64,000 nucleotides of DNA from an uncultured beta proteobacterium (lineage in GTDB: Bacteria > Pseudomonadota > Gammaproteobacteria > Burkholderiales > SG8-41): the NCBI GenBank assembly GCA_902825845.1, contig CADECM010000005.1, positions 5,048 through 69,047 of the forward strand, read 5' to 3'. Below are positions 37,706 to 47,623 of the stretch, piece by piece. A program made the position numbers and the translations under genes. The notes beneath the pieces are model-generated. The model had not been told where the DNA came from. It saw nothing but the letters and a program-made list of their open reading frames with translations, and ran no database searches. Each line of letters begins with the position of its first letter. The stretch's first letter is position 1.

Positions 37706-38149
37706 TTGGAGCAGTTTTTCGCAACGTTTTTTACTTATGTGCAGAAGAGTCCGCTCAACATGGTGTTGTTGGGCCTTGCGATCACCTCCGGCGGCATGCT
37801 GCTGTATCCCTTGATCACGCGTGGCATGCGGCCCGGCGCCGAAGTCGGCCCCAGTGAGGCGGTAATGATGATCAACCGCAAGGATGCCGTGGTGCTGGAT
37901 GTGCGCGCGGACGGCGAATATGCCGGCGGCCACATCACCAACGCGCGCCACGTGCCCGAAAAGCAGATTGCCGAGCGCATGAAGGAGCTGGAGAAGCTCA
38001 AAGGCAAACCGCTGATCGTCAGTTGCGCCAGCGGACGGCGCGCGACCGCGGTGGTGGACACGCTGCGCAAACAGGGATTTGCGGACGTGGTGGCGCTGCG
38101 TGGCGGCATCAGCGCCTGGCAGCAAGCCGGCATGCCGCTGGAAAAATAG
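37706..38149 (+). CDS. Membrane-anchored rhodanese-domain protein
   Basis: TTG start after CAGGAG. One N-terminal TM segment. Contains VLDVRADGEYAGGHITNARHVP and the active-site loop CASGRRA. Confidence 0.85.
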   Translation: MEQFFATFFTYVQKSPLNMVLLGLAITSGGMLLYPLITRGMRPGAEVGPSEAVMMINRKDAVVLDVRADGEYAGGHITNARHVPEKQIAERMKELEKLKGKPLIVSCASGRRATAVVDTLRKQGFADVVALRGGISAWQQAGMPLEK

Positions 38150-38177
38150 TTCCCACTCAACGACCGACAGGAAGATC

Positions 38178-38435
38178 ATGGCAAAAGTACTGATGTACAG
38201 CACAGCGGTTTGACCGTACTGCGTATCCGCGGAGCGGCTACTGGCAAACAAGGGCGTCAAGGAAATCGAAAAGGTTTACATCGATCGTGATCCGGCGCGC
38301 CGCAGTGAAATGATGGAAAAAACCGGGCGGCGCACCGTGCCGCAAATCTATATCGGCGACACCCATGTCGGCGGTTATGACGACCTGTCCGCGCTCGACC
38401 GTGCGGGCGGACTCGATGCGTTGCTGGCGAAGTAG
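38178..38435 (+). CDS. grxC: Glutaredoxin 3 homolog with an in-frame TGA replacing the first active-site Cys (U-P-Y-C); selenoprotein candidate or pseudogene
   Basis: My own translation is MAKVLMYSTAV-TGA-PYCVSAERLLANKGVKEIEKVYIDRDPARRSEMMEKTGRRTVPQIYIGDTHVGGYDDLSALDRAGGLDALLAK. Apart from the TGA at 38211-38213 it is a complete, conserved Grx (TVPQI, GG.DD). The ORF track misses it because of the stop. Confidence 0.8.
38223..38241 (+). other. Hairpin 9 nt downstream of the in-frame TGA (SECIS-like position)
   Basis: GTATCCGC-GGA-GCGGCTAC forms 7 base pairs with one T/C mismatch. The apical loop starts with GG and lies 17 nt after the TGA. Confidence 0.35.
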
Positions 38436-38474: not shown

Positions 38475-38969
38475 ATGAGTGAACAACCGCAGCAACCGGC
38501 CGGCGCGCAGGACACCACGCAGCCGATATTCAGCGTCGAGAAGGTCTATGCCAAGGATATGTCGCTGGAGGTGCCCGGCGCGCCGGCGATTTACATGTCG
38601 AACGACGCGCCGCAGGTCGACGTCAATATTCACACCGCGGCCTCGGTTGTCGAAGCGGGCGCGCTCTACGAAGTGGTGCTCACCGCCACCGTGACCGCGA
38701 AAGCGGGCGAGCGCACGGTGTTTCTGGTCGAAGTCGCGCAGGCCGGGCTTTTCCATATCCGCAACCTGCCGCCGCAGGATCTTGACGCCGTGCTCGGCAT
38801 CCTGTGTCCCACCACGCTGCTGCCCTATGCACGAGAGGCGGTGTCGGGAACGATTTCGCGCGCCGGCTTCCCGCCGGTGGTATTGCAGCACATGGATTTC
38901 AACCAGGTGTACCAGCAGAGCCTGCAGGCACGCGCGGGGGAACAGACCGCCCCGGCGCAGACCAACTGA
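38475..38969 (+). CDS. secB: Protein-export chaperone SecB
   Basis: Contains FSVEKVYAKDMSLEVP and LCPTTLLPYAREAVSGTISRAGFPPVVLQHMDF. Confidence 0.95.
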   Translation: MSEQPQQPAGAQDTTQPIFSVEKVYAKDMSLEVPGAPAIYMSNDAPQVDVNIHTAASVVEAGALYEVVLTATVTAKAGERTVFLVEVAQAGLFHIRNLPPQDLDAVLGILCPTTLLPYAREAVSGTISRAGFPPVVLQHMDFNQVYQQSLQARAGEQTAPAQTN

Positions 38970-46342: not shown

Positions 46343-46405
46343 AAAAGCGGGGCTGTGCCACCGACCCCAGTGGATTCTGAACACGTTACTGTAACGGAGA
46401 TCGCC

Positions 46406-47623
46406 GTGACTCATGTGAACAAGCCAGCCGCCGTTTTCATTAGTTACCGCAGGGCGGATACACAGTCGTTCGCGCGCGACCTCCATAAGCACCTGGCGGC
46501 GGGCTTTGGCTATCACCGCGTTTTCATGGACCGCGCGGAGATTCGCGCTGGCCAGCGCTGGGCCGAGCGCCTTGACGAGGAGCTCGAGCGCTCCACGGTG
46601 GTACTGGCATTGATCGGTCCCCATTGGCTCAAATTGCAGGATGCAGATCATCGCCGCCGCATAGACGGTCCCGACGACTGGGTGAGACGGGAAATCAGCA
46701 CGGCTCTCACCGGAGGAAAGGAAGTTATTCCGATCTATGTCGGCGGGGCCGAGCGGATCAAGGATCCGAACAAGCTACCCGCGGATCTCGTGGACTTGCC
46801 CGCGCATGAACCTATTGAGCTGACCGAAAACTACTGGAATGCTGGAATGGCCGACTTGGTGCAACGGCTGGAACATTTCGGACTCCGTGCGGCGCGGCCG
46901 GATTTCCGCCTGCCCGCGCGGCTGAAGCATGTGGCACCGCTTTCAGCGGCGGAACTCGAAGCGGAGCTCGCCAAGCTACCGCATTGGACCCTTACCGGAG
47001 AAGAGCGCCGTATTCCGCATGCGGCGGGGCCGGTACCGCATAGCGAGCTGTACCGGGAATACGCGTTCAGCCGATTCGAACACGCTACCGCGTTCATGGC
47101 CCAGACCAGCGCAGAGATCAACAAGCGCCAGCACCATCCGCGCTGGGAAAACTTCTGGACCACCGTCCGGGTATGGCTCTCGACCTGGGACATCGAGTTT
47201 CAGCCATCAGCATACGATATCGCGCTGGCAAAATGGCTGGATCAGGCCTATCTTGAGTTCAAACCATCCCCGGCCAAAATTCCTGTCGACACCGTGGCGG
47301 CGGCACCCGCCTCAACGGGTGTTCCGACACGTATGGCCAATGACGAAGTGCAGCGGCGACTCATCGCGCTGACAGGCTGGTCCCTGGTGGCAGGCAAGCT
47401 TGAGCGTACGCTGCAGTTTGGCGACTTTCAGTCTGCTTTTGGTTTCATGACATCCGTAGCGCTGGCGGCCGAGACCCTGAATCATCACCCCGAGTGGTTC
47501 AACGTGTACGATACGGTGCGCATTCAACTCACCACGCACGACGCCGGCGGCATCAGCGAAAATGACTTTAAGCTGGCTCAACGCATTGACGCACTGGCTG
47601 CCAGGCACGGCGTGCGGCCATAG
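46406..47623 (+). CDS. TIR domain protein fused to two pterin-4a-carbinolamine dehydratase (PCD/DCoH)-like domains
   Basis: TIR region: [23 protein letters not shown]...[10 protein letters not shown]...[12 protein letters not shown]...[11 protein letters not shown]-like 1: [15 protein letters not shown]...[25 protein letters not shown] 2 (canonical): LTGWSLV...[64 protein letters not shown]. The GTG at 46406 follows GGAGA; an alternative GTG start is at 46355. Confidence 0.8.

Follow-up and report, generated by a model that had tools for sequence, protein, structure and literature searches.

A conserved in-frame TGA at the nucleophilic cysteine codon of glutaredoxin 3 in uncultured Betaproteobacteria: a predicted selenoprotein

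We describe a glutaredoxin 3 gene (grxC) carrying a single in-frame TGA on a 64,000-nucleotide stretch of DNA from an uncultured beta proteobacterium (contig CADECM010000005.1 of GenBank assembly GCA_902825845.1, positions 5,048 to 69,047 of the forward strand). This whole stretch is called the window, and positions refer to it unless another locus is named. The genes of the locus are, in order, those for ThiF, an S41 protease, an M23 peptidase and GpmI, followed by those for a rhodanese-domain protein, grxC, secB, an SH3 protein, gpsA and a CLC channel. The features in and beside the interrupted gene are listed here.

38178-38435, plus strand: grxC (glutaredoxin 3), predicted selenoprotein gene; 85 codons plus TAG stop; predicted product MAKVLMYSTAVUPYC...
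38211-38213, plus strand: in-frame TGA, codon 12; predicted selenocysteine (Sec) replacing the nucleophilic cysteine (Cys) of CPYC; the next base is C (UGA-C context)
38220-38222, plus strand: codon 15 (TGC), second Cys of UPYC; TGC or TGT in 36 of 36 genes
38169-38174, plus strand: Shine-Dalgarno-like AGGAAG upstream of ATG 38178, read from the sequence
37706-38149, plus strand: rhodanese-domain gene; active-site Cys, not Sec; the same neighbour in all related loci
38475-38969, plus strand: secB (NF004394, 187.6 bits), with an ordinary TGA stop

The original prediction, made from the letters of the window, placed a complete 85-codon glutaredoxin-3 homolog between the rhodanese gene and secB, with its TGA exactly on the nucleophilic Cys of the CPYC motif, and the family searches bear this out. 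Translation of the gene on the plus strand gives GrxC/Grx3 with the TGA as its sole internal stop, in outline MAKVLMYSTAV(stop)PYCVSAERLL...RRTVPQIYIGDTHVGGYDDL...LLAK(stop) and in full MAKVLMYSTAV(stop)PYCVSAERLLANKGVKEIEKVYIDRDPARRSEMMEKTGRRTVPQIYIGDTHVGGYDDLSALDRAGGLDALLAK(stop). With Cys placed at codon 12, the product of about 9.5 kDa matches TIGR02181 'glutaredoxin 3' at 111.6 bits against a cut-off of 90. Its best solved relative, E. coli Grx3 (1FOV), aligns end-to-end over residues 3-83 (E 1e-22) and sets codon 12 opposite the first Cys of its own CPYC. The UGA is accordingly aligned with the redox-active Cys of Cys-containing homologs, the defining arrangement of a selenoprotein, and Cys occupies this position in every one of the close full-length homologs from the protein collection (up to 87% identity). 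Beyond the TGA no stop or frameshift interrupts the gene, as the prediction had it, and the later blocks TVPQIYIG and HVGGYDDL are intact and invariant among homologs; in the window gene the second Cys of the UPYC motif is intact too. The N-terminus MAKVLMYSTAV is kept in orthologs with synonymous variation. The mechanical list of open reading frames (ORFs) does miss the gene, showing just two pieces, one of 44 residues that ends at the TGA and one of 41 residues that starts at 38310.

The TGA is real: a single betaproteobacterial clade keeps it in 18 or more species-level lineages, and it recurs in several GrxC lineages outside that clade. Exact matches to the window SecB were found in four Logan assemblies of different sequencing runs, two of which reach grx; these two, from runs ERR3089234 and ERR3089227 of the same population, are identical to the window over 341 nt, TGA included. 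The 41-residue C-terminal fragment falls in a 90%-identity cluster of 20 different truncated proteins annotated 'glutaredoxin 3', each 41 or 53 residues long, which occur on many contigs, and because TGA-bearing orthologs are called as fragments in this way, they are invisible to a search for full-length proteins. For three of these fragments we fetched 22 loci (from NCBI metagenome-assembled genomes (MAGs), ENA, JGI and Logan), and all of them carry TGA at codon 12 in a frame that is otherwise intact. Among them are 8 distinct nucleotide sequences; at most 42 of the 258 positions differ, and nearly all of these are third codon positions. A degenerate pattern (TGA-CCN-TWY-TGY, then 96-108 nt, then G-R-x-T-V-P-Q-I), which gave 0 chance matches in shuffles of the window, extended the set to 20 GTDB species-representative genomes, 18 of them in the window's clade, and 23 JGI metagenome contigs, again with the frame intact in all. 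Codon 12 is TGA in every distinct full-length gene of the main clade (36 of 36), with no frameshift or second stop in any.

The 18 clade genomes are MAGs labelled Betaproteobacteria, Burkholderiales or Nitrosomonadales, together with several titled 'Bordetella parapertussis'. Judging by gene content and sequence, the latter titles (on loci L031, L033, L038, L039, L042 and L044) and that of 'uncultured Streptomycetaceae' on L040 look like errors of taxonomy or binning. In the cluster P0121-P0135, gene callers and the JGI annotation record the gene solely as 41- or 53-residue fragments from an internal ATG or GTG, and the active-site half of the Sec-type GrxC is therefore missing from the protein collection searched.

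The pattern of substitution points to purifying selection on both sides of the TGA. Over codons 13-85, the first 8 sequences give ratios of nonsynonymous to synonymous substitution (dN/dS) of 0.03-0.13, with synonymous divergence (dS) of up to 1.0, while on the 5' side codons 2-10 vary almost only synonymously across the 36 genes. Since the codons on both sides vary synonymously in one frame, both halves are translated as one protein under purifying selection, and the selenoprotein reading put forward in the original prediction gains support from this as well as from the recurrence of the TGA. The base after UGA is C in every TGA form examined. Elsewhere in the window TGA serves as an ordinary stop: it is the commonest one among the provisional gene calls (about half of them) and ends both secB and gpsA. 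These calls, based on GC content at third codon positions, are rough and picked shadow ORFs, and they were used for stop-codon usage alone. Two codons just upstream of the TGA, in the region 38199-38210, are also fixed at synonymous sites, codon 11 being GTT in 35 of 36 genes and codon 8 AGC in 36 of 36, while codons 7, 9 and 10 vary freely; such fixation may reflect a context effect on the efficiency of termination or recoding, or part of a longer RNA structure.

Downstream of the TGA the RNA can form either of two hairpins, described here with the U of UGA as nucleotide 1.

38223-38241, plus strand: hairpin B, a putative selenocysteine insertion sequence (SECIS) element; arms 38223-38230 and 38234-38241, GGA loop 38231-38233, U.C mismatch 38226-38238
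38214-38237, plus strand: alternative hairpin A, CCGU.CUGCG-UAUC-CGCGG.GCGG; the minimum-energy fold, which excludes hairpin B

Hairpin B, which the original prediction had described and which is present with its GGA loop 17 nt from the TGA, has the form GTATCCGC-GGA-GCGGCTAC, with 7 pairs and one U.C mismatch. Nucleotides 13-20 pair with 24-31, the loop is G21 G22 A23 and the mismatch is U16.C28. Hairpin A pairs nucleotides 4-13 with 18-27 and closes on a UAUC loop, which across the sequences is usually without G. In context, the folding energies are -12.4 kcal/mol for A and -10.7 kcal/mol for B.

The RNA just 3' of the TGA is constrained beyond what the protein needs. In the first 8 sequences codons 16-24 are wholly invariant, against 67% of other degenerate codons that vary (longest-run permutation P = 0.003), and across the full set of 36 no third position changes in codons 17-20 (NCC GCG GAG CGG). 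The codons chosen here are also unusual for the gene: Arg20 is CGG in 36 of 36 genes, compared with 26 of 198 at other Arg codons, which are mostly CGC, and Leu21 is YTA (CTA or TTA) in 33 of 36, compared with 5 of 246 at other Leu codons (Fisher P values for such codon bias are inflated, the sequences being related). Val16 is GTA in 33 of 36, and GTA and YTA, both rare elsewhere in the gene, are mutually complementary in hairpin B. The three sequences with Val16 GTG have Leu21 CTG, and in them position 16 becomes G and pairs with C28. Hairpin B is favoured over A because it alone explains the choice of GTA and YTA and because it has G in its loop, and we infer that B rather than A is the functional element. 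It is kept in all TGA forms of the clade and is absent from distant Cys orthologs, as is expected of a SECIS: the fold is impossible in four distant genes of the Cys type (QMAERLL or LMAERLL context; +5 to +9.6 kcal/mol), and distant Cys-type genes vary at Ala18 (GCG or GCC) and Arg20 (CGG, AGG or CGC).

Outside the main clade, TGA occupies the same position in more divergent GrxC sequences, namely in a group with ...PYC[VT]RAEQLL (L051, L053, L054, L062 and L063), in a pair with MYHKD[HY]UPYC (L055 and L061), in L040 and in a pair with UPFC (L043 and L066), one of the last two being a Binatia MAG. The ratio of nonsynonymous to synonymous polymorphism (pN/pS) 3' of the TGA is about 0.2-0.35 within these groups. 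Their downstream hairpins differ from hairpin B and lie about as far from the TGA: GCGGAGC-AGUU-GCUYCGC has its loop at 26-29, L040 combines this stem with a GGUU loop, and the UPFC pair has GUC or GGA loops at 24-26. Every TGA lineage has a hairpin with a small G-containing loop (GGA, GUC, AGUU or GGUU) that starts 17-23 nt after the UGA, and judging from the sequences Sec-type GrxC is present in several lineages. One copy in this set, L054 (JGI contig Ga0335083_10346093), differs from its close relative L062 in having IDDFHVGG instead of IGDAHVGG near the C-terminus and a longer tail (...LAGASAEGGGAPASATLPPAVG); the L054-L062 pN/pS of 0.36 is the highest seen, and this copy may be decaying or contain an assembly error.

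We consider it very probable that SelA, SelB, SelC and SelD decode UGA12 as Sec under the guidance of the hairpin that follows it, and that the product is a UPYC glutaredoxin 3. By analogy with known bacterial Sec decoding and with the Sec-containing glutaredoxin (Sec-Grx) of Clostridium, the inserted residue would be Sec, SelB would take part and the enzyme would gain a catalytic advantage. By the most likely route, SelB with Sec-tRNA(Sec) would bind the short mRNA hairpin at 38223-38241, with its G-rich triloop 17 nt after the UGA, and codon 12 would be recoded as Sec during translation, with no termination. In the full-length enzyme of about 9.5 kDa, a selenolate in place of the N-terminal active-site thiolate would attack glutathione-mixed disulfides, and the resulting Se-S intermediate (selenenylsulfide) would be resolved by Cys15 or by a second glutathione; that Cys15 would form the selenenylsulfide follows the chemistry of glutaredoxins in general. 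The Sec machinery is plausible in this clade because Betaproteobacteria are a major Sec-decoding group (PMC1794560).

For comparison we folded the SECIS element of fdhA from the Sec locus of Burkholderia cenocepacia (L094), where fdhA has an in-frame TGA and selA, selB and tRNA-Sec are adjacent. The Burkholderia element has a bulged U17, an upper stem of 18-21 with 27-30 and the loop G22 G23 U24 C25 U26. Like it, hairpin B lies directly 3' of the UGA within the coding region, has a 4-bp upper stem and a small loop beginning GG, and shows an irregularity under the upper stem, the U16 mismatch in hairpin B corresponding to the bulged U17. Unlike it, the loop of hairpin B starts at nucleotide 21 rather than 22, a register shift of one nucleotide. 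The remaining TGA-bearing GrxC lineages have yet other hairpins, whose loops (AGUU, GGUU or GUC) lie a further 1-4 nt downstream.

Several observations weigh against Sec insertion guided by hairpin B. Where fdhF/fdnG-type elements have a loop G-U above a bulged U17, hairpin B has G21 G22 A23 and the U16.C28 mismatch, and its loop is GGA and not the GGUC(U) of Burkholderia fdhA, with U absent. E. coli SelB requires the loop U in its SECIS, and the E. coli element has G23 U24. By position and shape hairpin B is SECIS-like while standing outside the fdhF-type sequence class, and its function may be analogous. Nor is the region unusually stable: over 60 nt beginning at the TGA the folding energy is -14.1 kcal/mol, compared with -15.0 +/- 2.9 for shuffles (z = 0.33), and GC-rich Cys-type genes fold more stably (-19 to -20 kcal/mol), so stability was dropped as evidence for a SECIS. 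The original prediction had proposed a check for covariation that preserves the hairpin, and this check revealed little of it, with a single compensatory pair. Among 26 distinct sequences, five pairs of hairpin B are invariant and two change to wobble only, while position 16-28 is A-U in 5, G-C in 3 and unpaired in 18; the evidence for conservation of the hairpin lies in the fixed synonymous sites, the covariation being weak. Hairpin A fits the pairing data about as well, with 96.6% of cells paired, changes to wobble only and the 6-25 pair broken in 8 of 26. As the core is invariant, covariation was set aside both as proof of hairpin B and as a means of telling it from A. We likewise gave up Glu19 as a SECIS-driven codon choice, its GAG being found also in all 7 Cys-type genes. 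No Rfam family matched the element at gathering or permissive thresholds. No selA, selB, selD or tRNA-Sec was found in the 64-kb window or in 67 loci (about 522 kb, of which grx-centred loci make up about 460 kb), and since these span grx neighbourhoods only, the result is uninformative rather than negative. Finally, hairpin B is still perfect in L070 and L071, two Cys-type genes nested in the Sec clade (GUGGCUGC-GGA-GCGGCUrC; -11.6 and -10.6 kcal/mol), and therefore the hairpin alone does not indicate Sec.

The two alternatives that the original prediction itself had raised, a recent nonsense mutation that leaves grxC a pseudogene not yet decayed and a base-call or assembly error in which TGC or TGT was read as TGA, are both refuted by the orthologs. 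A pseudogene is the default reading of a lone in-frame stop, and gene callers treat it so in reporting 41- and 53-residue fragments. It is nevertheless highly improbable, the stop being common to 36 distinct sequences, which come from 18 or more species-level genomes and diverge mainly at synonymous sites, with the low dN/dS downstream (0.03-0.13) and without frameshifts or second stops. An error is more improbable still: it has nothing in its favour beyond the prior plausibility of a single-base difference, and the codon is identical in independent assemblies of different runs and recurs in NCBI, ENA, JGI and Logan assemblies made by different groups. We give equally little credence to the idea that the C-terminal fragment alone is the product, from the internal start at 38310 or its equivalent, or that TGA is a sense codon in this genome. 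The fragments that gene callers output speak for the former, yet codons 1-11, in the same frame as the rest, vary synonymously while the residues they encode are conserved, and a fragment that lacked the active site along with half of the thioredoxin fold could not count as a glutaredoxin. Against reassignment of the code, TGA ends about half of the provisional gene ORFs, including secB and gpsA.

A read-through of the UGA independent of SelB is the alternative that deserves most attention, although we regard it as unlikely. On this account a near-cognate tRNA (Trp, Cys or Arg) would insert a standard residue at a leaky UGA-C with low efficiency, yielding little full-length protein and no selenium in it, and the hairpin would merely slow the ribosome. 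UGA-C is a weak termination context, and a C follows every UGA in the set; the GGA loop without the U of the Burkholderia fdhA SECIS, the ordinary stability of the hairpin and the lack of Sec machinery in the grx-centred loci would all fit such a process. But an enzyme with Trp or Arg in place of its nucleophile would be inactive, and Cys could be had far more efficiently through a single mutation (to TGC or TGT), yet TGA is kept in 36 of 36 genes over a dS of up to about 1. Nor would leaky stops be expected to coincide with the redox Cys codon in several GrxC lineages independently; a TGA in exactly this place is the Sec/Cys signature that defines selenoproteins (PMC1088965). Decoding of UGA12 as Sec thus remains the reading we prefer.

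Nested within the Sec clade are three grxC genes of the Cys type (L070 638-895, L071 3001-3258 and L073 1128-1385), and because of this nesting the hairpin is not exclusive to TGA forms; in L073 it has decayed (-1.5 kcal/mol). A neighbour-joining tree of SecB proteins recovers the main clade, including L070 and L071, with 99.5% bootstrap, places L070 (Cys) with L057 (Sec) in 100% of replicates and never recovers a Sec-only clade. L070 and L057 share 91.5% DNA identity over 1.5 kb, about 94% in the flanks and just 86% in grx, and their glutaredoxins differ at about 11 residues, which cluster around the active site and at codons 37-43, with a handful of synonymous changes in the C-terminal half. 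The grx of L070 could thus be a partial gene replacement or the result of rapid remodelling after loss of Sec. The rhodanese gene of L073 is closest to those of Sec-type loci (83.6% to L031) and not to those of other Cys forms. Among the top protein hits, only seven full-length Cys clusters share at least 84% identity with the window protein, and the V/I-A-A-E-R-L-L context of the clade is found in all four of those that were aligned.

Taken from these sequence relationships, Sec and Cys appear to be exchanged among close relatives within the clade, in agreement with the description of Sec/Cys exchange in bacterial selenoproteins as 'dynamic' (PMC1794560). The simplest reading of the nested Cys forms would be Sec-to-Cys reversion leaving a fossil SECIS, with a polarity that is suggestive only, as TGA forms were collected exhaustively and Cys forms from top protein hits alone. 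More speculatively, Sec and Cys might be toggling rapidly in this clade, a natural case in which the SECIS is non-canonical: a GGA triloop without the loop U would imply a SelB of altered RNA specificity or another recoding factor, and repeated recent replacement of Sec by Cys would be accompanied by compensatory remodelling of the active site and by fossil hairpins at different stages of decay. Whatever their history, the nested Cys forms provide closely matched natural Sec/Cys pairs that could be used to probe the contribution of Sec to glutaredoxin and the decay of a SECIS after Sec loss.

Selenoproteins of this kind are already known (PMC1088965, PMC13188914), as the original prediction had noted for other bacterial lineages. 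Sec-Grx (PF00462, UxxC) has stood in lists of bacterial selenoprotein families since 2005, when ten Sargasso Sea sequences were reported (PMC1088965), and occurs in Geobacter, Alkaliphilus and Moorella (PMC1794560), G. sulfurreducens WP_010943784.1 being an example of the family. PMC9312934 and PMC13188914 both note its experimental validation, and the latter cites the experimental characterisation of Clostridium oremlandii Grx1 (Kim et al. 2011). By family and motif, rather than by sequence relatedness, the window gene resembles the published Sec-Grx in its fold and family, in a UxxC with Sec for the N-terminal nucleophilic Cys, in a small hairpin with a loop G after the UGA and in having close Cys homologs. 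It differs in its host, uncultured Betaproteobacteria with Burkholderiales or Nitrosomonadales labels, and in being the housekeeping GrxC of a rhodanese-grxC-secB-gpsA locus. To E. coli Grx3 (GrxC; 1FOV, 3GRX) and the betaproteobacterial Cys-type GrxC it is orthologous, with the same TVPQI and GGxDD blocks, and the betaproteobacterial Cys forms reach 87% identity in the same neighbourhood; unlike these, it encodes its first active-site residue by TGA and not by TGC or TGT, and the RNA that follows is under constraint.

The novelty lies in lineage and locus, namely the housekeeping GrxC of an uncultured betaproteobacterial clade. A survey of 2006 found FdhA as the only selenoprotein family in Sec-decoding Betaproteobacteria (PMC1794560), and a full-text literature search of limited scope turned up no later mention of Sec-Grx for these bacteria. 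With the predicted gene, a class for which that survey had formate dehydrogenase only would gain another selenoprotein family, its second, in the form of a housekeeping thiol-disulfide oxidoreductase. The prediction would correct a systematic annotation error, the gene being called as 41- or 53-residue 'glutaredoxin 3' fragments or left uncalled in the records examined. It also suggests that widespread uncultured Betaproteobacteria need selenium for basic redox homeostasis. Names of samples and isolates hint at possible freshwater, stream and soil sources.

The rhodanese-grxC-secB-SH3-gpsA order is the same in the window and in its TGA-type and Cys-type relatives. The adjacent rhodanese (37706-38149, plus strand) has a weak match to NF041203 'rhodanese-related (seleno)protein' (48 bits against a cut-off of 115) and faint matches to tRNA 2-selenouridine synthase models, and its active site has Cys (SCASGRR); no selenium link is implied for it, as the rhodanese-grxC pairing is also kept in Cys-type relatives. 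The window held no second selenoprotein candidate, its 14 in-frame TGA candidates being adjacent genes that share a frame or antisense shadow frames. Further downstream, at 46355-47623 (plus strand), a 422-residue protein combines an N-terminal TIR_2 domain with two matches to pterin-4a-carbinolamine dehydratase (Pterin_4a) and is also found in L001; this fusion is unusual and might be related to defence or signalling.

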